Below are positions 20,470 to 35,733 of a stretch of DNA of 36,067 nucleotides, one piece after another (within the stretch, counting starts at the first letter, position 1; the number at the start of each line of letters is the position of its first letter). Origin of the DNA: Myxococcota bacterium. Lineage in GTDB: Bacteria; Myxococcota_A; UBA9160; UBA4427. A program made the translations under genes and the position numbers. The DNA is taken from contig JBCCZJ010000003.1 of assembly GCA_039187915.1 (NCBI GenBank), forward strand, positions 1 to 36,067, read 5' to 3'. The notes beneath the pieces were generated by a model. The model had not been told where the DNA came from and did not search any database. It worked only from the letters and a program-made list of their open reading frames with translations.

Positions 20470-20781
20470 GGGACCCTTGCGGTCCCCTGAAATTCGAGAT
20501 GATGTGCCGGCCACCGATCCTCCCCGCGCTCGAGCATGCCACTTCGGGCGGCGATCGACGAGATCGCGCGGCGAACGGTAGGGGGCTGCCAGAGGTCCAC
20601 CAATTCCAAGACGGAATCGCCGCTCGTGCCCCTCGAGTTCCCCTTGCGCGTCGGCCCGGGCGAATCCGTCCAATGCGCCGCCCGGGGGTGGGGCCCTCGA
20701 CCCGTTTCCCGATCCGCGGGCTACGGTGCGGCTGGTCGAATCGGAATCAGGGGCCTGCGAGCGCGTGTGGGTGAGGAAACG

Positions 20782-22731
20782 ATGAGCGTCGATGTGCTCG
20801 TCCTGGCACTGCTGTTGGCGGTGGGGATCGCCGGGGCCGTCGCGGGACTGCGCGGGCGGCGTCCCCATCGATTCGTCGGGATCGTCGCTCTCTTCTTCGG
20901 CCTGGCGCTGGCTCTCGCCGCCGAAGCGGTCTGGCGCAGTCAGCTCGCCCCACCCTCGATTCCGGAAGCGCAGGTCGTGGATCGTCCGATCGTCGTCCGC
21001 GAGGGGGAGTCCATCGGCCCCGAGACCTGCCGATCCTGCCATCCGCACCACTACGACACGTGGCGGAGCTCGCATCATCGGACGATGACCCAGGTGCCGA
21101 CGGAGGCTTCCGTGGTGGCGGACTTCGACGACCGCGTCGTGACGTTCTTCGGTCGCGATTTCCGGTTCTATAAAGAGGACGATGCGTTCCTCATGGACAT
21201 GGAGACGAAGGGATCGGAGAGCCGGACCTTCGAGCTGGTGCTCTCGACCGGCGCCCATCACCAACAGGCTTTCTGGTTCGCGACCGAAGAAGGGCGCAGT
21301 CTCGGGAAGCTCCCGCTCATCTGGATCAACGCCGAGCAGCGCTGGGTGCCGTACGGCTCGATCTTCATGGCGCCCCCCTCCCGCCCTAGCCTCGGTGTGG
21401 GCGTCTGGAACCGATCGTGCATCAAGTGCCATACGGTCGGCGGACGTCCGCGAAGCGACCCGGAGGCGGGGCACGACACGCACGTCACGGAATTCGGGAT
21501 CTCGTGCGAGGCCTGCCATGGAGCGGCGGGCGGGCATGCCGAGGCCCATCGCAATCCGCTCCATCGGTACGCGCAGCACTTCTCGACGCAAGACGATTCC
21601 ACCCTGGTCAATCCGGCCGACCTCGATCACGAGCGCAGCGCGCAGGTCTGCGGGCAGTGTCATTCGGTCTACGACTTCGCCGACGAAGCCGGCCGCGCGA
21701 GCTACGACGAAGAGGGATTCGGCTACCGCCCGGGCGACGACCTCCGCGACACGCGGCACGTCTACCGCGATCGAAGAGGCGAGGGGGATCCGATCGTCGA
21801 GGCCAAGCTCGCGCGCTCGCCGCGGTTCTTCGATCGTCGCTACTGGTCGGACGGCATGGTCCGCGTGAGCGGTCGCGAGTTCAACGGCCTTCTCGAGACG
21901 CCCTGTTTTCAGCAGGGGGAAATGTCGTGTCTGTCCTGTCATGAGATGCACGCCCATGAAGGGGACCCGCGTCCGAGAAGCGAGTGGGCGAACGATCAGC
22001 TCGGTGCAGGCCGGGACGAGAACGCGGCGTGTACGCAGTGTCACGAGGCGCTGGGGTCGGACGAACGACTCGCGGAGCACACGCATCATGCGCCGGGGTC
22101 CACGGGGAGCTCCTGCTACAACTGCCACATGCCTCACACGACGCTGGGGCTCATGAAGGCCATGCGAAGCCATACGATCGACAGTCCCGACGTGCGAACC
22201 GAAGTCGAGACCGGTCGTCCCAACGCCTGCAACCTGTGTCACCTGGACGAGACGCGTGCCTGGACCGCCGCATACCTCGACGCCTGGTACGAGATCGATC
22301 CGCCGGACTTGGAAGCGGACGACCAGGAAGTCGCCGCCTCGATTCGCTGGTTGCTCGAAGGGGACGCCGGTCAGCGCGCGATCGCAGGGTGGCACTACGG
22401 CTGGGCGCCCGCGCAGCAGACCTCCGGGACGGACTGGATGGCCGCCTCGCTCGCGGAGCTCCTGACGGATTCCTACGATGTCGTACGCTTCGTCGGGTCG
22501 CGCTCGCTCCGCGCGCTTCCCGGCTTCGAGGATTTCGAATACGACTACGTGGGCTCGAAGGTCGCGCGGGACGTGAGTCGCTTCGAGGCGCTCGCTCGCT
22601 GGCGCGCGCGCGACGCGAGGCCGACGCCCCGCGCCGCGCTGTTGATCGACGCGGAGGGCGATCTGGACGAGGCGACGTTCGATCGCCTTCGCGGGAATCG
22701 CGAGGACCCGATCGTCGTGCTGGCCGAATAG
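20782..22731 (+). CDS. Membrane-anchored octaheme c-type cytochrome (c554/c552-like N-terminal module)
   Basis: GAGG RBS; two N-terminal TM helices; eight CXXCH motifs: CRSCH, CIKCH, CEACH, CGQCH, CLSCH, CTQCH, CYNCH, CNLCH. Confidence 0.9.
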   Translation: MSVDVLVLALLLAVGIAGAVAGLRGRRPHRFVGIVALFFGLALALAAEAVWRSQLAPPSIPEAQVVDRPIVVREGESIGPETCRSCHPHHYDTWRSSHHRTMTQVPTEASVVADFDDRVVTFFGRDFRFYKEDDAFLMDMETKGSESRTFELVLSTGAHHQQAFWFATEEGRSLGKLPLIWINAEQRWVPYGSIFMAPPSRPSLGVGVWNRSCIKCHTVGGRPRSDPEAGHDTHVTEFGISCEACHGAAGGHAEAHRNPLHRYAQHFSTQDDSTLVNPADLDHERSAQVCGQCHSVYDFADEAGRASYDEEGFGYRPGDDLRDTRHVYRDRRGEGDPIVEAKLARSPRFFDRRYWSDGMVRVSGREFNGLLETPCFQQGEMSCLSCHEMHAHEGDPRPRSEWANDQLGAGRDENAACTQCHEALGSDERLAEHTHHAPGSTGSSCYNCHMPHTTLGLMKAMRSHTIDSPDVRTEVETGRPNACNLCHLDETRAWTAAYLDAWYEIDPPDLEADDQEVAASIRWLLEGDAGQRAIAGWHYGWAPAQQTSGTDWMAASLAELLTDSYDVVRFVGSRSLRALPGFEDFEYDYVGSKVARDVSRFEALARWRARDARPTPRAALLIDAEGDLDEATFDRLRGNREDPIVVLAE

Positions 22732-24511: not shown

Positions 24512-24641
24512 CCGGTCGGGGGAGCGTCCCTCTTCCATGGAAAGAGGCCGACGCCGGCCGCCCGCGGACCGGGAGCGCGCCATTCGCTGCTTCTGTGAAG
24601 TCGCCCACGTTGTCGTTGCCTCGCTGGAACTAGGCTCCGTC

Positions 24642-26630
24642 ATGATGCAGCGCAGTCTCCTCCTTCTGATCGTCCTCTTCGTCTTCTCCCTCGAAGCCCT
24701 CGAATCGGCGGCCGCGACCCGCTTCGTTCGTTCGACCGACGGCACCGACGCGGGCAATGCCTGTCTGGTCGAGAGCTCGCCCTGTCGGACCATCCAACAC
24801 GCCTACGACTCCGCCGCGGCCGGCGACGAGATCTGGATCGCGGGTGACTTCGACGAGAGCGTGAGCACGACCTTCCCGGTCTCCTTCGTCGGCCGCAGCC
24901 GCTTCGTCCTCCCCCCGACCGGCACGGCGTTCGGTCTCTGCGCCGGAGAGACGGGCATCAATCGCTGCCCGCGCTGGACCACCTCCTCGTCGAGCGCCCC
25001 CGCTCTACTCCTCGACCCCGGCGCGCTCCAGGCGACACGGGTCGAGCACGTCCGCTTCGTCGACGTCTCGGGGCGCGCGGCCGTGCAGGTCGAGTCGGGA
25101 TCGATCCAGATCCTCGACGCGCTGTTCCGGAACAATCGGAACACCGGCGGGGGGCTTCGCCCGGGCGGCGCCCTGTCGATCGCGGGCGCGAACGGCGTGA
25201 CGATCGAGCGCTCGATCTTCGAGGAGAATCGGGATGCGAGCTCGGGGGCGCTCGCCGGAGGCGGTGCGATCTCCTCGTTTGCTCCGCTCGTGGTCTCGGA
25301 TTCGACGTTCGCCCGCAACGAGGCGGAGTTCGGTGGCGCGCTCTTCTGTGGCGCTGGGCAACTGGACGTGACGAACTCGGTCTTCGATCAGAACGTCGCG
25401 AGTGAGGCCGGGGGCGCCATCCGGATGGAGTTCATCACGCCCGCGACGATCCGCGACGGCACGTTCCGCTTCAACGAAGCGGGCTCCGAGGGCGGCGCCG
25501 TCAGCGCGCTGGTGAGCGCGCTCGAGGTCTCGGGGACGACGCTCTTCCAGGAGAACCGGGTCGACGTCGACCCCTCGCTGGGAAGCGGCGGCGGGGGGGC
25601 CGTCTCCGTCGCCGGACTGACGACACGGATCGACGGGGCCACGTTTCTCGGCAACGTGATCGAGAGCGCGAACAGCGAGGCCGCGGGCGCTGCTCTCGTC
25701 GCTTCGTCGAACGGCTCGGTCACGATCACGGACACCCGCTTCGAAGAGAACGTCGAGGGCGCGACCGGCAGCGCCCGGGAAGTGGGCATCGTCGCCGCGA
25801 CCGGCGGTGCCGATCTGGACCTGCGGTCGAGTCTGTTCGCGAACGCCGGCGTGAGTGCCGACGGAACCGCGCTCGTGCTCGATGCGAGTACGCTCACCAT
25901 GCGGGATTCGGAAGTCCACGACTATGCCGGCGGGATCTATCTCGAGACTCTGTCAGGCCTCGCCACCCCCAGCGAGGTCGAGGTGCTGCGGTCGACGCTG
26001 GCGGCCCACGCGACCAATGTCTCCGTGCGCACCGCAACGAACGTGCAGCCCCACGAAGTCCGCTTCTTCAACGCGACGCTCTCGGGCGCGTCCGCCGCGA
26101 ACGTGGACGTGGGCGAAGCGGGTATCTTCGAGTTCGTCTTCACGACCCTCGCCGACGGGACTGCTTTCGACTTCAGCGCCTTCGCGCCCGCGTCCACGCT
26201 CCAGGTCGCCGTGCGCGACTCGATCGTCGACGGCGACTGCGTCTTCGGCGGCGCGCCCTTCGCGGGACCGACGCTCGCCCTGGGCACGCGCTGGAGCGAC
26301 GCCTCCTGCGGCGCCGGTTCGGGGCTCGTTCCGAACCTCGGGCTGCTGCCCCTCGCCGACAACGGCGGACCGACGGAGACCCACTTCCTGACCCCGGCGA
26401 GCCCCGCCATCGACGCCGGAGCGCTTCGCTGCCTGACCGCTCCGATCGATGCCCTCGACCAGCGTGGCGTCACCCGTCCCGAAGGCGCCTGCGACGCGGG
26501 CGCCGTCGAAGTGCCTGAGCCGGGATTCCGGCTCGGACTCCTGATCGCTTCGATCGGGCTCACCGCGGCGGGAGGGCGCACGCGCCGTGGGGGCCGCCCG
26601 AGCGCCGCGCGGCGGCTCTCGGCGAGCTGA
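24642..26630 (+). CDS. PEP-CTERM protein with polymorphic-membrane-protein-type beta-helix repeats and a choice-of-anchor Q-like domain
   Basis: Signal peptide; PCRTIQHA; repeated FxxN...GGA(I/L/V); LLPLADNGGPTETH...SPAIDAG...DQRGVTRP...CDAGAVE; VPEP plus TM helix and basic tail. Confidence 0.88.
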   Translation: MMQRSLLLLIVLFVFSLEALESAAATRFVRSTDGTDAGNACLVESSPCRTIQHAYDSAAAGDEIWIAGDFDESVSTTFPVSFVGRSRFVLPPTGTAFGLCAGETGINRCPRWTTSSSSAPALLLDPGALQATRVEHVRFVDVSGRAAVQVESGSIQILDALFRNNRNTGGGLRPGGALSIAGANGVTIERSIFEENRDASSGALAGGGAISSFAPLVVSDSTFARNEAEFGGALFCGAGQLDVTNSVFDQNVASEAGGAIRMEFITPATIRDGTFRFNEAGSEGGAVSALVSALEVSGTTLFQENRVDVDPSLGSGGGGAVSVAGLTTRIDGATFLGNVIESANSEAAGAALVASSNGSVTITDTRFEENVEGATGSAREVGIVAATGGADLDLRSSLFANAGVSADGTALVLDASTLTMRDSEVHDYAGGIYLETLSGLATPSEVEVLRSTLAAHATNVSVRTATNVQPHEVRFFNATLSGASAANVDVGEAGIFEFVFTTLADGTAFDFSAFAPASTLQVAVRDSIVDGDCVFGGAPFAGPTLALGTRWSDASCGAGSGLVPNLGLLPLADNGGPTETHFLTPASPAIDAGALRCLTAPIDALDQRGVTRPEGACDAGAVEVPEPGFRLGLLIASIGLTAAGGRTRRGGRPSAARRLSAS

Positions 26631-26739
26631 GACGCACGAGAGGCGGAATCCCTCACGATCAGGCTCGCGAGTTGCCCGTTTTCGTTGGGCTTTGCGCCTT
26701 CCTCGACGAGTGCATCCACGCCTCGAGAGGAATCTTCCC

Positions 26740-29700
26740 ATGCGCATCTCCGCCGTCGCCCACCGGATCCTGTCCACCAGTCTCGCTGTTGCGGCCACGA
26801 CCGTTTTCGCCTCCGCATCGGCGCTGGCCCAGCCGAGCCCCGCCCCCGTCTCCGCCGAAGACCCGCTCGGCGAGGGGCGTCTGGTCATCGGCTCCCCGGA
26901 ACTGGTCGTCGCCCAGGCCGGCTCCTGGAATCCCTACTTCCCGCTCGACAGCCGCGCACAGCAGCATCTGCTCGACGCGGTCGGCTCGGTCGACACCCAT
27001 GCGATGGAGCAACCCGGCAACACGGCGACCAGCGGGAGCTCGCGCATGCTTCCCGATACGCTGATCGACGTCACCGTCGGACGCTTCCTCGACGACGATG
27101 GCGGACGTGCCCTGCCGCGCTCGATCACGGCCTGGATCGGCCAGAGCAATGAGCTCGTCCTGAGCGCCCCGGGACTCAACCGGCTCTCGCTCTCGCTCGG
27201 CACCTTCGCCAGCTCCCTGCCGACCGGCCATGCCTTCCCGGCGCTCGCGACGCCCTATCGATCCCTCGCCGGCGCCTACGCCGATGAGCTTCGACAGTTC
27301 CGGATCGAAACCGGTGACGTCGACGGCGACGGCGTCGACGAGACCGTCGTCGCCCAGCGAAACGCGTCGGGGCAGATCCAGGTCTCGATCTATCGCTTTC
27401 AGGGCTCGGACGGATCCGCGGTCCGCACGCGCTTCCTGCTCGACGAGTTCGTGTTCAGTACGGTCTTCTATGCTTCCGGCGCCTGCTCGCGCGGGCCGGC
27501 TTACGCACCGGTCGGCGCGATGGCGTTCGACGTGGCGATGACGGACGTCGACGGAGACGGCGCGGACGAGCTCGCCATCGCCTTCAATCGCGCCCACTGC
27601 GATTGGACCGGCGCCCAGGGTCGAGATGAGTGGATCCAGACGCCCTCGATCGCGATCTACCGTGACCAGAATCCCGGCCCGTCCCAGAACTGGGCCGTCG
27701 AGGTCGCGCCGCAGGACGTGTCGACGCCGCGCCACGCCGCGCGCAACCGATCGAGCGGCGCATGGACCGGAGAAGTCTGGCCGCGCGTCGCGATCGTCGG
27801 TGCCGACCGCAACGGCAATGGCCGCGAACAACTCCTGACGGCCGCGACGACGGACGACGGCCAGGTCCTGCTCACGCAGATCGAGGTCGACACCCTCGCT
27901 TCGCCCTGGACGGCCACGAACGACGGCGTGCAGTACGCCGGCCCCGAAGCGGCGTGCGGCTGCGATGGCGGCCCTTTCACGGTCGAGGCGGACGACCTCG
28001 ATCGCGACGGCGACGCCGAGATCGTCGTCTATGCGAACGACGAGCTCCGGATCTTCTCCGAGAACCCCAACAAGGACGTCCCGGCCACCGGTATCGAGGC
28101 CTACCTCAACGGCCTTCTCGTGGAGCGGGCTTCGACCACGCTCGAGCCCTCGCGTCTCGACGCCACCAGTCATCGCGTGCTGACCTTCGGCGACCCGGAC
28201 ATCGACTTCGGCGATTCGTTCGCCCGCGAGATCCTCGTGGCCGAGGCGCTCTCGACCGCGTCCGGTCGCGCGGGGGACCTCGCCCTCCTGCGATGGGACG
28301 GCGACGCCGCGATCGACTTCGTCGCCAGCCAGCCTCTGCCGACGCTCGCGGTGGCCGAGGCGGATCGTGCCTATCCCGTCGCGCTGGCCGCGATCGAAGT
28401 CGACGAAGACGGGGCCCGACTGTCGGCACCCGCCTGCGAGACCGCGTTCGACGTGGCTCAGCCGCTGGTGATCGTCAACGCGCCGCCGATCCACTTCGAC
28501 ACCGAGAACCGATCTCCCGCGGACGGGGCGTGCGTGGATTCGTCGACGCCCGGCTGCTTCGACGTGAACGCCTGCTATCCGGCGGTCGCGGGCTCGACCT
28601 GTGATTTCACGGCCAGCTACATCGAAGAATCGACGATCGAGGTCGCTTCCGAGGTCCGCGCCGATTGGGCCACGTCTCGCACGCGCACCGAATCGAGCGG
28701 CCTCGAGGGCGGACTCCAGGCGGCCGAGTTCGCCTACGTGAAGGCCTCGGTCGACGAAGAGCTTCGACGTTCCGTCGGAGAGCGCTTCGAGAAGGTGAGC
28801 TCGAACGCGAGCCAGCTCGAACTGACCACGACGATCGTCGCCAGTCGGCGCGACCGGGTGCTCGTGAGCGAAATCGACTACGAAGTCTGCGAGTACGAAG
28901 TGCTCGGCAGCGAAACGAACGAGCCGCTCGGCCACGTCGTCGCGGTCGTCCCCGGCGACGTCTCCCCGCCGAGCTGGCGCGCGCTCGATTCCGTCGCGAA
29001 CGGCGCGCTCCTCGCGGACCGCCACGAGGCGGGCAATCTCCTCTCGTACTCCGATGGAGGGGCCCTCTCCCTCGCGGCACTGAATGCGCGACCCGAGGTC
29101 GCGAGCGCGCTGCTCGTGACGGCGCCCCAGCAGGTCACGCCGGGAAGCGGCGACGCGGGCGGCTTCACCGTCCGTCTGGCGACCGTCGAGTCCGAGGAAC
29201 TCGTCCGCGCCTCGAGCCAGCGGATCTCGAGCTCGCTCTCGGTCGAAGGCAGCGAGGGCGTGAGCGGCGACATCGCGAACGTCTCCGCCTCGATCGGCGT
29301 CGCGACCGAGGGGAGCTACGAGGCGAACGACATGAACACCCATCGCACCACGGTCTCCGACTCGGTCGAGGTCCGCGTCGACCTCGGCTGGCTCGACGGC
29401 GGATTCGCGCAGGGTCTCGGCGCGCCCGACTACGAGATCCAGGGCCTGGTCTACTGGGACGTGAACGGCACCTTCGTCGTCGACTATGCCGTCGACCTCG
29501 ACGTCGCCCCGGTCAGTTTCTGGGACAACTATTACGGCGCTGCGCCCGACCTCACTTTCAATCTGCCCTGGCGCCAGGATTACGCGAAGGGCATCAGCTC
29601 GACGCTCGCGACCGAACTCGAGCGATCGCCGGACATCGCGGTCGTCGGTGGTCGCATCCTTCCGAACGAGCCGTTCGCGGTCGAGGTGCGCGTCGCGAAT

Positions 29701-30069
29701 CGGTCGACGCGGGAGGAGGCCTACGCGCCGGTCGGCGTGCGCGTCTACCTGGGCGACCCGCGCGAGGGCGGCGTCGAGGTGACTCAGCCGACGCCGGTGT
29801 TCTTCGACCCGGCGGCGCGAGAGACCCAGGTCCTGCGGATCGAGGGACTCGTCGCGCCGGCCGGCTATCCGATTCCGGACACGCGCGTCTTCGTGGAGCT
29901 GGATCCCGAGGACCGGGTGACCGAGATCCACGAGGACAACAACCAGGCGTGGGCCGCCTTCGAGAAGGATCCGTTCGCGGACTACGTGCCGGAGCCGCGG
30001 GTCGCGCTCGGGTTGTTGATCGGCGTCGCTGCGCTGTCCGCGCTGTCGCGGCGGCGGAGCGGATCGTGA
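26740..30069 (+). CDS. Large PEP-CTERM protein with FG-GAP/VCBS repeats and a C-terminal CARDB-like domain
   Basis: GAGG RBS; signal peptide ending ALA; GDVDGDGVDE, TDVDGDGADE, ADRNGNGREQ and DDLDRDGDAE Ca-binding repeats; DPEDRVTEIHEDNN (CARDB); VPEPRVALGLLIGVAALSALSRRR. Confidence 0.88.
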   Translation: MRISAVAHRILSTSLAVAATTVFASASALAQPSPAPVSAEDPLGEGRLVIGSPELVVAQAGSWNPYFPLDSRAQQHLLDAVGSVDTHAMEQPGNTATSGSSRMLPDTLIDVTVGRFLDDDGGRALPRSITAWIGQSNELVLSAPGLNRLSLSLGTFASSLPTGHAFPALATPYRSLAGAYADELRQFRIETGDVDGDGVDETVVAQRNASGQIQVSIYRFQGSDGSAVRTRFLLDEFVFSTVFYASGACSRGPAYAPVGAMAFDVAMTDVDGDGADELAIAFNRAHCDWTGAQGRDEWIQTPSIAIYRDQNPGPSQNWAVEVAPQDVSTPRHAARNRSSGAWTGEVWPRVAIVGADRNGNGREQLLTAATTDDGQVLLTQIEVDTLASPWTATNDGVQYAGPEAACGCDGGPFTVEADDLDRDGDAEIVVYANDELRIFSENPNKDVPATGIEAYLNGLLVERASTTLEPSRLDATSHRVLTFGDPDIDFGDSFAREILVAEALSTASGRAGDLALLRWDGDAAIDFVASQPLPTLAVAEADRAYPVALAAIEVDEDGARLSAPACETAFDVAQPLVIVNAPPIHFDTENRSPADGACVDSSTPGCFDVNACYPAVAGSTCDFTASYIEESTIEVASEVRADWATSRTRTESSGLEGGLQAAEFAYVKASVDEELRRSVGERFEKVSSNASQLELTTTIVASRRDRVLVSEIDYEVCEYEVLGSETNEPLGHVVAVVPGDVSPPSWRALDSVANGALLADRHEAGNLLSYSDGGALSLAALNARPEVASALLVTAPQQVTPGSGDAGGFTVRLATVESEELVRASSQRISSSLSVEGSEGVSGDIANVSASIGVATEGSYEANDMNTHRTTVSDSVEVRVDLGWLDGGFAQGLGAPDYEIQGLVYWDVNGTFVVDYAVDLDVAPVSFWDNYYGAAPDLTFNLPWRQDYAKGISSTLATELERSPDIAVVGGRILPNEPFAVEVRVANRSTREEAYAPVGVRVYLGDPREGGVEVTQPTPVFFDPAARETQVLRIEGLVAPAGYPIPDTRVFVELDPEDRVTEIHEDNNQAWAAFEKDPFADYVPEPRVALGLLIGVAALSALSRRRSGS

Positions 30070-30087
30070 GCGCTCGATTGAAGTCGC

Positions 30088-30180
30088 CCCCGGAAGGGGC
30101 TGAGGTGCCCTGGCCGAGACGACTTCTCAGTTCCCCATGTAGCGGTGGTGCCGAAAATCAAGCTTGTTCTTCCTATCCGC
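30088..30180 (+). mobile_element. 93-bp repeat copy 1, ending in an IS91/ISCR oriIS-like terminus
   Basis: 83/93 identical, ungapped, to 32205-32297; ends GCTTGTTCTTCCTATCCGC, resembling the ISCR/IS91 oriIS consensus G..TTGAA(C/A)TTCCTAT. Confidence 0.7.
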
Positions 30181-30346
30181 TCGACCGCACGTCGAGCAAG
30201 AGCGCATCCGCCGGCCGCTGCTCGACGCAGCTCTGCTGGCTGAGCATCGGGATCGCCTCCGGCCGCAATTCGTTCGCGCACGCCACGAGAACGAGCGCGG
30301 TTGAGAGGGCGAGGAGCCCGAGACGAATCGCGTGTCCGCTCATCAT
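30173..30346 (-). pseudogene. Truncated rhodanese-like lipoprotein (57 aa)
   Basis: MMSGHAIRLGLLALSTALVLVAC (lipobox)...ADALLLDVRS matches a rhodanese N-terminus, then stops at a TAG supplied by the 93-bp repeat. Confidence 0.65.
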
Positions 30347-30377
30347 CAGAGGCGCGCTACCTCAGAGGCGCGCTACC
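30346..30377. repeat. Perfect 16-bp tandem duplication TCAGAGGCGCGCTACC x2
   Basis: 30346-30361 and 30362-30377; duplicates the last codons and stop of the upstream lipoprotein gene. Confidence 0.9.
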
Positions 30378-30964
30378 ACGCCGTCCGCGACCTGCAGGGC
30401 GAGATGTTCGATCAGCTGCCGACGGGCGGGATCGACGTAGGCCTCCGGCGTGGCGAAGATCGCATGCACGATTCCGGCCTCCGCTTCGACCTCGAAGGTC
30501 GCGATCGTGTTTCCATCGCGTGAGAGGGTCACCTCGAGAGCTCCCTCGTAGTCCTGGAAATAGGGAAGGATGGGGGCGGGCAGGAAGAAGAACCAGCCGG
30601 TCGCCGCCGCAGCGATCGTTCCCCAGAGGATCGCTTCGTCGAGTCCGCCGATTCCGCTGACCTCGACGATGATCTGGTCCGCGCTCGGAGCGGGTTCGAC
30701 GGGATAGTGGACCGCGGAGAAGGCCTTACGCCCGATCAGGGCCTTCTGGATCGCCTCGGCGAGTTCGCCGTTGCCCCACGGAACACCGGCCTCGTTCACG
30801 CGCAGGATGGCTTGCGCGCTTCCGTCGCCCTTGGGCGCCTGCGGCGCGTACGCCCCTGGGCCGGTCTGGAACGACCAGCAGCCCGCTTGCGTGAGGAAGG
30901 TGACGAAGAGGACAGCGACCAGGCCGCGGCGGAGGGGCTGGGCACGTCGGAGTCGTCGGATCAC
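30362..30964 (-). CDS. Putative lipoprotein, function unknown
   Basis: Basic N-terminus, hydrophobic core, TQAGC lipobox-like motif; internal hydrophobic hairpin; GTGA overlap with the upstream gene. Confidence 0.7.
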   Translation of the reverse strand: MIRRLRRAQPLRRGLVAVLFVTFLTQAGCWSFQTGPGAYAPQAPKGDGSAQAILRVNEAGVPWGNGELAEAIQKALIGRKAFSAVHYPVEPAPSADQIIVEVSGIGGLDEAILWGTIAAAATGWFFFLPAPILPYFQDYEGALEVTLSRDGNTIATFEVEAEAGIVHAIFATPEAYVDPARRQLIEHLALQVADGVVARL

Positions 30965-31191
30965 GGGGCGGCCTCCTCGGTCGGGTTCGGGGTCTCGTCG
31001 TACGAAGCGGCTTCGTCATCGGTGGCCGCAGTCGGCGGTGCGGACGGCTCGCGCGAGATCGTCCACACCAGATCGTTGTTGGCGCGGGCGTCCTCCGGCA
31101 TGGCGACGTACTGACGTGCGCAGGCGAGGGCGCTCGTCGAGAGGAGCAGCAGGAGGATCATCCATCGGGCTGCGTTCGATCTTCTCGTCAT
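30961..31191 (-). CDS. Small lipoprotein (76 aa)
   Basis: MTRRSNAARWMILLLLLSTSALAC lipobox; ATGA overlap with the upstream gene; acidic disordered tail. Confidence 0.6.
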   Translation of the reverse strand: MTRRSNAARWMILLLLLSTSALACARQYVAMPEDARANNDLVWTISREPSAPPTAATDDEAASYDETPNPTEEAAP

Positions 31192-31925
31192 CGTGCAGCT
31201 CCCTCGCCGTTCAATCGAGCCCACTGCGCGCCGTCTCCGGGCCCGCTCCACTCGGCCGGTGTCTCGCCGAGGCGGGCGTAGCGATTCGCGAGGGTGAGGA
31301 TCGCCGCGGCCATCGTCCGGACCGTACGGCCGTGGGTCTTGTCAAGAACTGTCTGATCCGGGGAGCCCACGGTCACGACATCCTGGGACTTCACGTGGAA
31401 GTTCCGACTCGCGACGAGGCCGGCCCCGTTCGTGACCTCGAGGCGCACGCGGTAGTCGCTCTCCGACAGGACGGACTGCATCTGGGCCATGACCTCGACC
31501 TCCGCCATCAGGAGGGTGCCGCGTACCTGAAGGACATCGGCGTCGAAGGGGCCTTCCTCGACGACCTCGAAGTCGGCGGACTCGAGGGCCTCGATCAGGT
31601 CCTCCGCGAGCCAGGTCGGCGGCGCCTTCGAACAGAGGAGTTGCATCCGGAACATCGGACGCGAGGACGAGGTGCCCTTCTTCGTCCGTCCGGAGCTCGT
31701 CTTCTTCCCTTCCGCGGGTCCCTGGCACGCGGCGGTCTCTCGCTCGTCTTCGAAGGGCGTGACCACGTGGACGCGCATTCCTTCGTCGGCGCGGAAGTCG
31801 ACGCGCGTCCTGACCAGCGGGCGCCGGAGTTCGGGCGCCTGGGCGCACGCAAGCGTCAGTGACCCGACGAGCGCGACCAGCCCGAAGAGCGTGATCGCAA
31901 AGCGAAGGGAAGGGGAACGGATCAT
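31188..31925 (-). CDS. Lipoprotein, possibly YajG-like fold
   Basis: GGAG RBS; MIRSPSLRFAITLFGLVALVGSLTLAC lipobox; VVTPFEDER and WLAEDLIEALESADFEV pattern. Confidence 0.7.
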   Translation of the reverse strand: MIRSPSLRFAITLFGLVALVGSLTLACAQAPELRRPLVRTRVDFRADEGMRVHVVTPFEDERETAACQGPAEGKKTSSGRTKKGTSSSRPMFRMQLLCSKAPPTWLAEDLIEALESADFEVVEEGPFDADVLQVRGTLLMAEVEVMAQMQSVLSESDYRVRLEVTNGAGLVASRNFHVKSQDVVTVGSPDQTVLDKTHGRTVRTMAAAILTLANRYARLGETPAEWSGPGDGAQWARLNGEGAAR

Positions 31926-31984
31926 CGCGGCTCCTGTCCGATTCGGTCGGTGGAGCCGCGAAGATAGGAAGCTGATAGGCGATG

Positions 31985-32204
31985 AGCCAGCGATGCTTCT
32001 GCGGCTTGTCCGTGCCTGCGGGTCGATGTGGACGTTGACGATCGACGGCGTCGAGTCGTCCAGCGCTTGCTTCAGGGCAGCGGTCAGTTGGTCCGGCGTT
32101 CGAACTGAATCGCCCCTGATCCCGAAGCCTTCGATCCTCTTCTCATACCCGGCCTGGATCGTATAGGCCATCGCCGGCCACTGGAAGCGATCTTCCTGCA
32201 GCTT
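31985..32204 (-). pseudogene. C-terminal fragment of a TPP-dependent enzyme (oxalyl-CoA decarboxylase / 2-hydroxyacyl-CoA lyase-like)
   Basis: AYTIQAGYEKRIEGFGIRGDSVRTPDQLTAALKQALDDSTPSIVNVHIDPQAR, then KPQKHRWL in a shifted frame; no N-terminal part; abuts repeat copy 2. Confidence 0.7.
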
Positions 32205-32297
32205 CCCCGGAAGGGGCTGAGGCGCCCCGGCCGAGACAACTCGTCAGTTCCCGATCGAGCGGTGGTGCCGAAAATCCAGCTTGCTCTTCCTATCCGC
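32205..32297 (+). mobile_element. 93-bp repeat copy 2, ending in an IS91/ISCR oriIS-like terminus
   Basis: Direct repeat of 30088-30180 with 10 substitutions; ends GCTTGCTCTTCCTATCCGC. Confidence 0.7.
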
Positions 32298-32475
32298 GTT
32301 CATCGAATCGTCTTCCGCGAAGCGTCGATCTCGACGCGCCCGAGGGGCCGGGACCCTTCGAATCGAGGCGGGCACGCGGGTCGAGAAGCGGCCGACGATG
32401 CGCAGGGCCGGCGCCTTCGCGAGGCGTCCGAGCGTCGGGTCGAAGGAACGCGAGTGGAGGCAGTCCCGATCCAGC

Positions 32476-33890
32476 CTAACGACGCTGCGCCGACGGTGAC
32501 TTTCGCCGCTTCGGGCGTCGGCGTAGGGCCATCGCCAGGACCCCGATCATCAGCCCTGTCGGTCCGTCGAGTTCCGGTACGAAGAAGGGCGTCTCGACCC
32601 GATAGCCGATCGAGTAGGGACCCGAGGGGCCGGACCCGAAGTAGGTCAAAATCACGTCGTGGGTGCCGGGGCCGAAGAGGGCCTCGAGACCTGGATCGAT
32701 CGCCGTGTCGTCGAGCAGGGTCGGCGCCACGCCCGTCTCGCTGGCCTGCAAGATGAAGCTCGCGTTGAGGTCGAACGCGTCCACTGGCGGGCCGCCGCCG
32801 GGGAGCGACACCTGCGGTACGCCGAGGACGCGCAGATTCCTGGCACGCAGCGTGTATTGGTCCCGGAGGACGCCGAATGTCGGGAAGTCGTCTTCGACGA
32901 AGATGCTGCAGTCGAGAGAACCGGCGAGGCAGAACGCCGTATCCTCGTGCGCGAGTGATCCGAAATGGAGCCCGGTTGCGACGACGGCGTTCCGGTACTC
33001 CGCGGACTCCGGCGCGACGTCGCCGTCCACGGTGAAGGCGTCGAAGCTGAGTTCCGCCGCGAACCAGCCGCCGTCGAGACCCTGGTCGTCGAGGAAGGCC
33101 TGTACGTCGGGCGGCACGATCCCGGAGATGAGCGCGGGATCGGCGAAGGCGCGGCCCGAGAAGGCGTAGGGGACGATGTCGCTCGCGGCGGCGTCGAAGG
33201 ACCAGGCGACGCTACCGCTTCCGGACCACGAGACGTCCGGCGGCGAGCCGCAATTCGTCCCGCTCAAGCTCGCGAGTTCCGGCCGGATTTCGAGCGTATG
33301 GGTCGCCCCGAGCATCACGGGGCGGGTCGCTGTCCCGATCGCCGTCGGGCTCGCGTTCGACACGTCCACGGCGGCGAAGAAAGCGCCGTCTAATCTGAAC
33401 TCGAGGCGGCCCGAGCAGAGCGAACCGCCGACCGGACTGCAGGCCAGCGAGTAGTCGAGGGTGAGCAGCCCTCTGCGCTCGAGACGAACGTGTAGGAGAA
33501 GCCGTCGCTTCGATCGTTGTTCGCCTGGCAGGCGTGCGTGAAGTCGGCTCCGGGATCCGAGACGTTCAGACCGCCGCTGAAGCTCGTCGTGCCGGACGAG
33601 GCGGACGAGAACTGCGTGGTCATGTTGATCGTCGCGTTCGCGTTCGGGCCCGTCCCGGAAGCGGCGTTGGCATCGGCGGTGGCGGAAAGGTCGCCCAGAG
33701 TCGCGAGCTGTGTGTCGCTTCCGAGCGCAGTCTCCTGGTCGACCAGGACGCCGCAGGTCCCGGGCCCGGTGCAGACCTGCGCGAAGCTCTCGAGCGAGAT
33801 CGAACTCGAGACGGGCGTCGCCGCCATTGCGACCGTGGGCAGGAACCGCGCTGCAACGAAGGCTGCGACGGGCCGGGCCGGACGGACGTC
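32476..33890 (-). pseudogene. Frameshifted PEP-CTERM-type surface protein (VPEL variant)
   Basis: N-terminal part (..AMAATPVSSSISLES..) is in the 33390-34040 frame and the C-terminal part (LLTLDYSL...VPELDGPTGLMIGVLAMALRRR) is in the 32476 frame; one added base at the CCC at 33469-33471 joins them; start uncertain. Confidence 0.65.
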
Positions 33891-34316: not shown

Positions 34317-34757
34317 CTACGCGAGATCCCCAAGCTTCAAGACCTCCAGCCCCGAGATCGCAGGCAACCTCCGATCGTTAGTGATCATCGTGGTCGCCCG
34401 TGTTGCGAGTCCCGCCGCGAGCTGGAGCGCGTCCGGTGTCCGGACGCCGTGGACTGCGCGGAGTTGAGCCGCCGCCCGGAGTTGCTGCCGATCGATGTCG
34501 ACCAGCTGGAGGTGCGGGGCGCGAGTGAGAAGCCGCTCGTAACGCTCCGCCAATGCGACCTTGCCGGCGCGATAGGGCACGACCAACACTTCGAGCAGCG
34601 TGATCGCCGAAGTCACAGCCTCGATCTCGCCGCTAACGATCGCCCGGAAGAGCGGCTCGACCTTTGCCAGGTAGGTTGGGTTCTCTTCGATCCAGTAGAT
34701 GAAGATGGCGGTATCGAGGGCGATCGGACCTTCCCCGAGACTGTCGATCAGTCCCAA
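34317..34757 (-). CDS. vapC: PIN-domain toxin (VapC/FitB-like)
   Basis: IALDTAIFIY, TSAITLLEVL and RTPDALQLA...TND acidic PIN motifs; TTG start overlapping the antitoxin stop. Confidence 0.88.
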   Translation of the reverse strand: MGLIDSLGEGPIALDTAIFIYWIEENPTYLAKVEPLFRAIVSGEIEAVTSAITLLEVLVVPYRAGKVALAERYERLLTRAPHLQLVDIDRQQLRAAAQLRAVHGVRTPDALQLAAGLATRATTMITNDRRLPAISGLEVLKLGDLA

Positions 34758-34978
34758 GAATCGCGCTCCTTTGCGACGTGCTCAGCGGCGTCGGTCTCGG
34801 CCCAGATCTCTTTCCCGAGTCCCTGGAGTTCGAGGAGGGAGACGGGTTCCGGCTCCTCGAGCACGTCCGTCAGGATGTGCGTGACCTCCTGGGCGATAGA
34901 TCGATGATTTGCACGTGCGCGCTCACGAAGCCGTTCGTAGAGGGTGTCAGAGAGGCCCTTGATGTTCAGTGTGGCCAT
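34748..34978 (-). CDS. FitA/Arc-like ribbon-helix-helix antitoxin
   Basis: AGGAGG RBS; MATLNIKGLSDTLYERLRERARANHRSIAQEV; directly upstream of and overlapping the PIN toxin. Confidence 0.88.
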   Translation of the reverse strand: MATLNIKGLSDTLYERLRERARANHRSIAQEVTHILTDVLEEPEPVSLLELQGLGKEIWAETDAAEHVAKERDSWD

Positions 34979-35366
34979 GGTTCCTCCTGAATGGAGACAT
35001 TTTGGAGGACTCTTGATGGGATAGCAAGGCCGGTCGATCCGGAGGCTCGACGAGCCCGCCGCGGGTCGGTCGGCGGTGGGGGCCTCGTGGAGGACAACCA
35101 GGCCACCGACAACCTGCGGCGACTTCGAAAGCGACGCCGTCGTGCTCGACCGTGGATATCGGGGTAGGGCGTGCCGCCACGCGGCGCCGCGCGGCGACCG
35201 CGCGTTCACGAAGACCGGGAGAACAGGAAGTGGCGGCGCGGAGCGACTGCCAAGAGAGGTCGCGGAGATGGCGGCGCGATCCGAAGGGGAACGCGATGTC
35301 TCCGCCGGCAAGCCGTTTGCGGGGCGAGGTTGATTCGATGGAGGTTCCGGCGAAGTCGCCGCAATT

Positions 35367-35432
35367 CGCTACGAACGCCACGAGCCCGAGAAGCGGCTCC
35401 TTCACCGCGTGGTGCGCGAGCATCTCGAGCCT
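35367..35432 (+). pseudogene. N-terminal remnant of an IS91-family (ISCR-like) transposase
   Basis: RYERHEPEKRLLHRVVREHLE matches the N-terminal YxRxxPExTxLYxxVxEH motif of IS91/ISCR transposases; no zinc-finger or HUH motifs follow. Confidence 0.65.
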
Positions 35433-35733
35433 TCGTCCAGCGCTCACGGTCCGCCGGCACTGTCCTTCACGGGCGGCGCCGAGCGCGATTCCATTCAGGC
35501 AGCAACGGCCTCGGCGACAGCCGAAACGACTCCCGTGTGGCATCGATGCGCAAAACGAGACAGTCCTCATTCCGCGAGCGCGAAATCGTAACTGGCACGA
35601 CTTGCCCTCGGGATACGCCTCGACCGTCCCAGCAATCGTAGTCAGATCTCAGCAGGACATTCCGAGCGAACGATCGCTAGATGCGCGCATTCAGAGCCGC
35701 TCTCCTCCAACGGCCGAGGCCTGAATCGTACGT

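Follow-up and report, generated by a model that had tools for sequence, protein, structure and literature searches.

Insertion sequences of the IS91 family, which include the ISCR elements, move by rolling-circle transposition with an HUH transposase that acts at an origin (oriIS) in the right end of the element. For IS91 and IS801, the account in PMC13181058 describes an oriIS with a pair of imperfect subterminal palindromes (the right end's final 82 bp being sufficient), no target duplication, one-ended transposition in 1-10% of events and a bottom-strand single-stranded DNA circle as the functional form and intermediate; in the same account, a failure of termination in IS91 mobilises adjacent DNA, and a CTTG/GTTC-type tetranucleotide abutting the ori end is documented for IS91, IS801 and IS1294. 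A further source (PMC5737581) reports oriIS 167 bp past the coding sequence. Transposition of the ISCR elements themselves is, in the sources drawn on here, presumed and not demonstrated. Miniature right ends have been trapped in vivo for IS801 in Pseudomonas syringae pv. phaseolicola (229, 360 and 679 nucleotides, nt); the relevant sections of that study (Bardaji et al. 2011, PMC3189936) attribute them to one-ended, prematurely terminated transposition of full-length masters, and report that IS801 also took along 290-1431 nt of adjacent gene DNA. The present analysis concerns a 93-nt repeat found twice in a 36,067-nt stretch of DNA (hereafter the window; positions 1 to 36,067 of contig JBCCZJ010000003.1, GenBank assembly GCA_039187915.1) from a metagenome-assembled genome (MAG) of a Myxococcota bacterium. 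We conclude that the two copies are solo right ends of an ISCR-like element which, together with the 2-kb segment between them, probably represent the fossil of a one-ended rolling-circle capture event.

A repeat search of the window detected two ungapped, direct copies of the repeat (hereafter units) at positions 30088-30180 and 32205-32297, both on the plus strand. They are identical at 83 of 93 positions (89%), their starts are 2117 nt apart, and both begin with CCCCGGAAGGGG and end with CTTCCTATCCGC; the direct repeats with sharp, shared ends that had been pointed out in the first-pass annotation, a model's reading of the window letters, were thereby reproduced to the base. Model R1, a covariance model of the unit, matches the solo right end of copy 1 with 91 bits (E 1.7e-22) and that of copy 2, which has the canonical form, with 85.7 bits (E 5.2e-21). 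Directly to the left of copy 1 (30076-30087, plus strand), a recognisable 12-nt version (GATTGAAGTCGC) of CTTGAAATCGY, the motif that precedes the unit inside the insertion sequence, has been retained; it is absent from copy 2, whose right flank opens with GTTC. Inspection of the window letters revealed no target duplication flanking the pair.

Within the 4.88-Mb MAG, BLAST and hidden Markov model (HMM) searches located a third, diverged copy (~76% over 70 nt) at base 1 of contig C52. Beyond these three copies nothing better than E = 7.8 was obtained, and an HMM built from 21 sequences and applied at E<=10 returned the same three only. Since the HMM limits the MAG to three copies, and the unit is present in every genome of the genus (see below), a chance origin of the window repeats was dismissed. 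The C52 copy (C52:1-93) provides the final 14 codons and the stop of a 331-aa open reading frame (ORF) with a PEP-CTERM-like tail, and the contig breaks exactly at the unit's edge, a hint that the population contains additional copies which are missing from the assembly. In one public run, contigs produced by an independent assembler span both outer junctions of the window pair; this run is probably the source sample and does not constitute independent support. The contig across copy 1 contains five differences from the window (30125-30141), three of which (30125, 30126 and 30139) are the letters of copy 2. These differences could reflect strain micro-heterogeneity, gene conversion between the copies, or the mixing of repeats by the assembler.

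In relatives of the MAG the unit was found to be physically linked to a transposase gene. Pfam analysis of 128 flanking ORFs in relatives identified Y2_Tnp or Zn_Tnp_IS91 beside unit copies at five loci, and 21 transposase loci of relatives were used to determine the distance between unit and gene. At 14 of these 21 loci the unit is co-stranded with the transposase match and follows its end by ~90-265 nt. The distance is 559 and 1175 nt at two others and 1.9 kb at a locus belonging to a distant subfamily; at the remaining four, where <=210 nt of sequence is available past the gene, no unit is present. In the full element the module is located ~150 nt past the transposase gene. The transposase of the relatives is 39.7-42.5% identical to those of ISCR1, ISVsa3/ISCR2 and plasmid IS91-family elements, and its top NCBIfam match is ISCR_clade_Ia (E 6e-103), under the strict cut-off of that model. 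The window itself retains a 46-codon N-terminal remnant of such an ISCR-like IS91-family transposase at 35334-35471, on the plus strand, i.e. that of the units (residues 4-52 of 601; 61% identity, E 1.4e-10, in a tblastn search with the 601-aa transposase of a relative). Upstream of its coding part, the remnant has no DNA similarity. The IS91-type remnant that the first-pass annotation had placed ~3 kb away is therefore real, although very small.

To compare the unit with described elements, R1 was run with filters off on three reference elements, namely ISCR1, ISVsa3/ISCR2 and an E. coli IS91-family element. The best match in each lies ~170-240 nt downstream of the transposase gene, and the top matches are the tnpA-distal ends: ...CTTCCTATACCC in ISCR1 (E 0.0079; at greater length ...AAAAGGTGGTTTATACTTCCTATACCC), ...CTTCCTATACGT in ISVsa3 (E 0.0053; at greater length ...GAAAAGGGCGTTTATTCTTCCTATACGT) and ...CTTCCTATACGC in the E. 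coli element (E 2.8e-4), where R1 aligns over the whole unit. The core common to these alignments reads ..GAAAA..G.TT....CTTCCTATnCnC. From 5' to 3', the module consists of (i) a short terminal palindrome (CCCCGGAAGGGG), (ii) a second, imperfect GC palindrome, (iii) a conserved spacer, TTGTCAG...TATCGGTGGTG.GAAAA, and (iv) the core GCTTG..CTTCCTATCCGC. Because of the position of the unit after the transposase gene, the core shared with the oriIS of reference elements, and the agreement of both with the literature, we are highly confident that the 93-nt repeat corresponds to the oriIS-bearing right end of an ISCR-like HUH rolling-circle insertion sequence of the IS91 family.

Some properties of the unit would also fit a structured small RNA, a terminator module or the conserved 3' end of a gene, i.e. 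DNA that does not belong to a transposon. A putative GC hairpin opens the unit, in copy 1 only 19 nt past a stop codon; one minus-strand frame is open through copies 1 and 2, and on C52 the unit completes an ORF. We regard an origin of this kind as extremely improbable. No Rfam family was matched in the window at gathering score, and at E<=1 the region 29950-32450 gave a single chance microRNA match, outside the units. A coding origin was rejected in view of the unrelated flanks (in 49 units, many of them inside broken genes), the lack of family matches (the PEP-CTERM-like tail has none in NCBIfam or Pfam) and the linkage to a transposase; moreover, the substitutions show no 3-base periodicity. 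The transposase linkage and the homology to ISCR oriIS account for the unit fully. Homology to a coding sequence or a known RNA, which the first-pass annotation had named as a possible objection to a mobile element, was thus not borne out.

An integron- or dif-like cassette system, in which the units would be sites for a tyrosine or serine recombinase, might be suspected from the direct repeats that bracket gene cassettes and from the arrays with 2-4 kb spacing in relatives. This, too, is very hard to reconcile with the data: the ends of the unit are not mutual inverted repeats, neither attC-like symmetry nor an attC-like R''/L''-L'/R' layout is present, and the enzyme encoded beside the units is an HUH Y2 transposase (no systematic search for an integron integrase was made), the integrase-core (rve) matches being ordinary insertion sequence fragments cut by units. 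A transposable element of the miniature inverted-repeat type (MITE) was likewise rejected, as CCCCGGAAGGGG is not the inverted copy of CTTCCTATCCGC and target duplication is lacking.

The analysis of related genomes revealed that the unit is very widely distributed. R1 produced 822 matches (E<=1e-3) in 31/31 genomes of the genus (1-89 per genome, three in the MAG itself), with at most 138 candidates scored per genome. A BLAST search with the 93-mer gave matches in 20 of 61 related genomes, the copies having sharp common ends and unrelated flanks. At the level of the order, matches (E<=1e-6) were obtained for 29 of 121 sampled genomes, representing 14 of 59 genera, and high counts were confined to the genus of the window. 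Public records containing the exact core motif are mostly titled as MAGs of Myxococcota, Myxococcales and Deltaproteobacteria, with a few of Gemmatimonadota and Spirochaetaceae; the few matches in Erysipelotrichaceae and Mesomycoplasma are probably due to chance. Solo units exceed transposase matches: Pfam detected 71 pieces of Y2_Tnp in 22/31 genomes of the genus, and one genome of the genus carries 63 units and no Y2_Tnp match. The first-pass annotation had expected many copies with identical ends, some of them downstream of intact IS91 transposase genes, and similarity to IS91-family ends; on all three points the relatives and the reference elements agree with it.

The borders of the units were analyzed in a set of 49 unique full-length units with flanks, derived from the loci of relatives and the window. 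All 49 have the left start CCCN, within unrelated flanks. None is bordered by a duplication of >=4 nt, as is to be expected from the absence of target duplication assumed at the outset, and the 20 nt on the right-hand side lack a consensus. The motif A(A/C)(G/C)CTTGAAATCG(C/T) stands before every transposase-linked copy, and the start of solo copies falls right behind it; both kinds of copy have in common the part that extends from the first palindrome up to the terminus. The sequence TGAAnTCG(n) directly precedes the unit in 8 of the 49 cases, namely window copy 1 and seven copies of relatives, five of which adjoin a transposase gene or fragment. Identical units in different flanks occur in the relatives, as do 5'-truncated units in which the ori end is kept.

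A subfamily in genome G012 (loci L228-L231, e.g. L231:1504-1746) carries a 143-nt inverted-repeat MITE, with 22-nt terminal repeats and an 8-bp target duplication (AAATTCCT), inside the ori core. Four copies of this MITE-bearing, 245-nt form were found, each at a site with its own flanks; one is transposase-linked and three are solo. All of them share the left start base and end with ...TTCCTATCCGC; therefore, the left and right borders define what is moved. In the same genome, an rve-type insertion sequence cut by two units was sought in uncut form as an internal empty-site control, and only a 79%-identical relative of it was found.

All features of the 2,024-nt segment between the window copies read on the minus strand, and genes at both of its edges are broken. 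The left edge (30181-30346) is formed by a 5' fragment (~55 codons) of a gene for a rhodanese-domain lipoprotein, with a signal peptide and lipobox; it is cut at the copy-1 boundary and its frame stops at a TAG inside the unit. This piece resembles the N-terminal residues 41-77 of a rhodanese-domain lipoprotein encoded on contig C322 of the same MAG (36% identity, E 7e-6), and the alignment runs to LDVRS and ends at the copy-1 boundary; the C322 protein carries the Rhodanese domain in Pfam, and the piece itself has no Pfam match. The right edge (32010-32204) consists of the last ~65 codons of a gene for a thiamine pyrophosphate (TPP)-dependent enzyme, cut at the copy-2 boundary and covering only positions 112-151 of the 151 of the Pfam domain TPP_enzyme_C (E 8e-4). 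Contig C322 carries a full TPP-enzyme gene, in which the N, M and C domains are all recognised by Pfam; the window fragment is 80% (protein) and 82% (DNA) identical to the 3' end of this gene, and 72-83% identical in DNA to 16 relatives, the homology stopping at 32203-32204, the base before copy 2. Neither broken gene resumes beyond its unit, and the outer flanks are unrelated to both. The first-pass reading of genes broken at both inner edges is fully consistent with these alignments, which place the breaks at the unit boundaries.

Between the two fragments lie three ORFs of 200 aa (30362-30964), ~76 aa (30961-31191) and 245 aa (31188-31925), with the lipobox-like sequences LTQAGC, ALAC and LTLAC, respectively. 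These had been taken for three intact lipoprotein genes: the frames are indeed open, the lipobox-like signal peptides are judged by eye, and Pfam and NCBIfam gave no match for any of the three. The 245-aa product is 37% identical to that of an ORF beside the rhodanese gene on C322 (E 4e-28), and an intact cluster homologous to the window segment is present on this contig. As for the outer flanks, the stop codon of a gene for a 1160-aa FG-GAP protein lies 19 nt to the left of copy 1, and 178 nt to the right of copy 2 the 3' end of an opposite-strand gene is reached. The 2.2-kb block is thus located between two convergent genes, both with intact 3' ends.

It was also noted that the TPP fragment reads in frame, with no intervening stop, into the 245-aa lipoprotein ORF (31926-32243, minus strand); the stop of the TPP gene, present in the C322 homologue, is missing from the window fragment.

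In two well-assembled relatives, the units were found to be clustered: 46/53 and 33/40 neighbouring pairs are <=10 kb apart (9.5% and 12.7% under random scatter), the median gaps are 3.6 and 2.6 kb, and 31/46 and 24/33 of the close pairs are on one strand. Two clusters open at a transposase-linked unit and extend for at least 35 kb, mostly in its orientation. Another genus provides an example with three direct units, 2.9 and 1.7 kb apart, the first of which is attached to a transposase gene; two of the three are 100% identical over 97 nt. As in the window, truncated genes abut the units of such clusters, including those for (i) an alkyl sulfatase cut at profile position 89/139, (ii) a carbonic anhydrase cut at position 228/254, (iii) an enoyl-CoA hydratase without its first 85 positions, and (iv) an integrase-core fragment truncated on either side by a unit. 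The remainders of the alkyl-sulfatase and hydratase genes were not found across the unit, and that of the carbonic anhydrase would be too short to detect.

Larger duplications and other composite arrangements were observed at several loci of relatives. Contig C18 of genome G019 (~2.8-23.2 kb, L020/L030) contains a large inverted duplication (93% identity in the 3 kb that were compared); each arm has three units, spaced by 3.35 and 3.87 kb in mirrored order. In genome G003, a duplication of at least 13 kb, ~95% identical (G003:C14:1-13142 vs G003:C24:71953-85125; L081+L061, L082+L075), stops exactly at the ori end of a transposase-linked unit and runs off the contig at its other end; one-ended transposition of a very long segment could account for it, as could strain variation inside the bin. 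At two loci, L047 (G017:C36, 3587-4366) and L048 (G009:C45, 3082-5206), a second, inverted unit lies at or inside the 5' part of the transposase, so that the transposase gene or remnant is bracketed by inverted units. A different kind of repeat, 84 nt long and 98.8% identical, is present at L046 (G034:C7, 7686-7769 and 9193-9276); the repeated sequence is a tRNA gene's 3' half (T arm, acceptor stem, CCA), and the two copies resemble an integrative element's att sites, with an IS91-family transposase gene directly downstream.

The anatomy of the window could be explained by the following course of events. The transposase would nick at the ori end (...CCTATCCGC), and the bottom strand would be displaced leftwards from the nick. 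If displacement stopped just past the two palindromes, at the site after CTTGAAATCGY of a master copy, a 93-nt miniature would be released and inserted elsewhere. Such a solo unit would be without a proper terminator, and with transposase provided in trans, a run from its ori end would take along left-adjacent DNA. Copy 2 may formerly have resided inside the TPP-enzyme gene of a related locus, from where a run would have taken the 3' end of this gene, the three lipoprotein ORFs and the first ~55 rhodanese codons. The 2.1-kb product, now beside copy 1 and between two convergent genes, would either have been joined at the nick site of copy 1 (accretion), or the whole unit-cargo-unit structure would have moved as a composite. 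The exact cuts of both genes at the unit boundaries, and the same pattern in the clusters of relatives, support such a capture, and on the basis of this anatomy we lean towards one-ended rolling-circle transposition rather than recombination. Regarding the non-autonomous, gene-capturing rolling-circle mini-element proposed in the first-pass annotation, the right-end identity is well supported, and we infer movement and capture from the anatomy of the locus.

Alternatively, the units may well be IS91-family right ends and the 2-kb mosaic nonetheless the product of ordinary recombination or deletion, i.e. two independent miniature insertions followed by RecA-type exchange or adjacent deletions. 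This alternative, which we consider possible and on the whole rather unlikely, is taken seriously because a number of observations weigh against capture by one-ended transposition. Neither a circle junction nor an excised form nor an empty site was detected, the assembled contigs of public runs being uninformative either way; a single public-run joint, from 29512 to 32656 (side 21), is off the unit ends and under the reliability hint. No second copy of any cargo segment was detected in ~94 kb of the clusters of relatives, and searches with flank DNA in 30 relatives of the genus retrieved only the conserved TPP 3' end, other units, two short local matches and one distant homologue of the right-flank gene (in G009, without synteny with the window). 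The captured segment begins on its left with TCGA..., and not with the CCCN of the miniatures. A CTTG/GTTC-type tetranucleotide, which IS91 needs beside its oriIS, occupies positions +1 to +4 in only 3 of the 49 units.

The structural signals of the element weigh in the same direction. The palindromes are weak: in the first, 14-21 of 21 sequences pair per position and 72% of cells pair, a level also reached by 33 of 500 shuffles; the folding energies of the window copies are no better than those of shuffles (bottom strand z -0.26 and +1.68), and RNAalifold retained only a 3-bp stem. The left terminus (terIS) of the full element cannot be placed to the base, the conserved feature of the left-end region being, 110-190 nt upstream of the transposase gene, the palindrome GTTCAC..GTGAAC with ..CTCG after it. 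Besides the remnant, Pfam (Y2_Tnp) and tblastn searches gave no further trace of a transposase in the MAG, which is 75% complete, so that the absence of the enzyme is not established. Finally, the authors of the IS801 study attribute, in the sections drawn on here, most genomic fragments to reorganisations and not to one-ended transposition (PMC3189936).

Recombination would find ample substrate in the relatives, whose genomes carry dozens of near-identical 93-nt units, enough for homologous exchange. Their units lie at junctions of unrelated fragments in both orientations, with only part of the close pairs co-stranded (the 31/46 and 24/33 given above), and are involved in large rearrangements, namely the inverted duplication of at least 20 kb and the duplication of at least 13 kb ending at an ori end. 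In the window, however, this explanation needs two insertions and at least two further events, with both outer ends falling just past the stops of intact convergent genes, whereas the single insertion of a 2.2-kb composite explains the outer ends at once. Furthermore, the genome in question now has just three units, and the inner fragment, being 82% identical to the TPP locus of the same genome, does not derive from a recent local rearrangement of that locus.

Whatever its course, the event is old and the system in this genome is a fossil, since the copies differ by 11%, the TPP fragment is 18% diverged from the locus in its own genome, and only the 46-codon transposase remnant is left. A more far-reaching proposal, which we put forward tentatively and consider doubtful, is that solo oriIS units act as launch and landing pads, the HUH transposase joining a circle of cargo plus one unit to a resident unit where the latter is nicked. 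If this were true, cargo would accrete into co-oriented arrays downstream of a master insertion sequence; it would amount to integron-like gathering of genes by a rolling-circle enzyme instead of a tyrosine recombinase, and the window would be a two-unit fossil of it.

Among described systems, the element resembles ISCR1 and ISCR2/ISVsa3, with which it shares an HUH Y2 transposase (40-42% identical), an oriIS 170-240 nt past the gene and a common core. Like ISCR elements in general, it lacks inverted repeats and target duplications and has unrelated captured genes as neighbours, its copies often being repeated or truncated. It differs from them in that (i) it occurs most commonly as a bare 93-nt oriIS module, with no transposase, at up to 89 copies per genome, (ii) the hosts are uncultured marine bacteria represented by Myxococcota-labelled MAGs, and (iii) the cargo consists of housekeeping and lipoprotein genes, not resistance genes. 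Eukaryotic non-autonomous Helitrons offer an analogy: they are also rolling-circle HUH elements whose short forms outnumber the autonomous ones, capture gene fragments, carry a hairpin close to one of the termini and insert with no duplication of the target. Helitrons have a different, Rep-helicase transposase architecture, other hosts and no sequence relation to the present element, and the likeness is one of analogy only.

With IS91, as described in PMC13181058, the unit may share the two imperfect subterminal palindromes of oriIS, which are visible here and statistically weak; an orf121-like gene, as in IS91, was not noted here. The IS801 miniatures, as presented in PMC3189936, are the nearest precedent and likewise continuous right-end pieces, in which the right terminus is intact and the left end lies at a fixed internal position. 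They are longer, however, and genomically rare, the 360- and 679-nt forms being reported without genomic copies, and they start at GAAC-like tetranucleotides and have a clear tetranucleotide target, in contrast to the CCCN start and the lack of an evident target observed here; the present form is a minimal 93-nt ori module with hundreds of copies across the genus. In full-text searches of the literature on IS91-family miniatures and non-autonomous oriIS, only the IS801 miniatures were comparable. In view of this precedent, the designation as an undescribed mobile system (first-pass annotation) is too strong. The IS91/ISCR family and the principle, i.e. one-ended transposition, miniature right ends and gene capture, are already known; what looks new is that a minimal 93-nt ori module has been amplified to dozens of copies in single genomes and lies where the pieces of gene-fragment mosaics meet.

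To the left of the units, the window encodes a multihaem cytochrome c with several CXXCH families (20536-22731, plus strand), a beta-helix protein (24537-26630, plus strand) and the FG-GAP protein mentioned above (26587-30069, plus strand). The tail of the latter (VPEP, a hydrophobic stretch and RRR) is PEP-CTERM-like by eye, and neither NCBIfam nor Pfam gave a match for it. Between copy 2 and the transposase remnant lies a VapBC-type toxin-antitoxin pair (34317-34981, minus strand), in which a PIN-domain ORF (34317-34781, E 6e-17) overlaps that of a ribbon-helix-helix antitoxin (~34748-34981).

Taken alone, the window is of modest significance: it probably holds an old, inactive capture event with three lipoprotein genes, a small and decayed example of the pattern seen in its relatives. 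IS91 and ISCR elements are best known for assembling antibiotic-resistance regions, and their pick-up of genes is still largely inferred. The genus described here offers hundreds of natural unit junctions, in which the rules that govern initiation, termination and insertion could be read, and the 93-nt unit, in combination with a cloned transposase, would make a simple test substrate.

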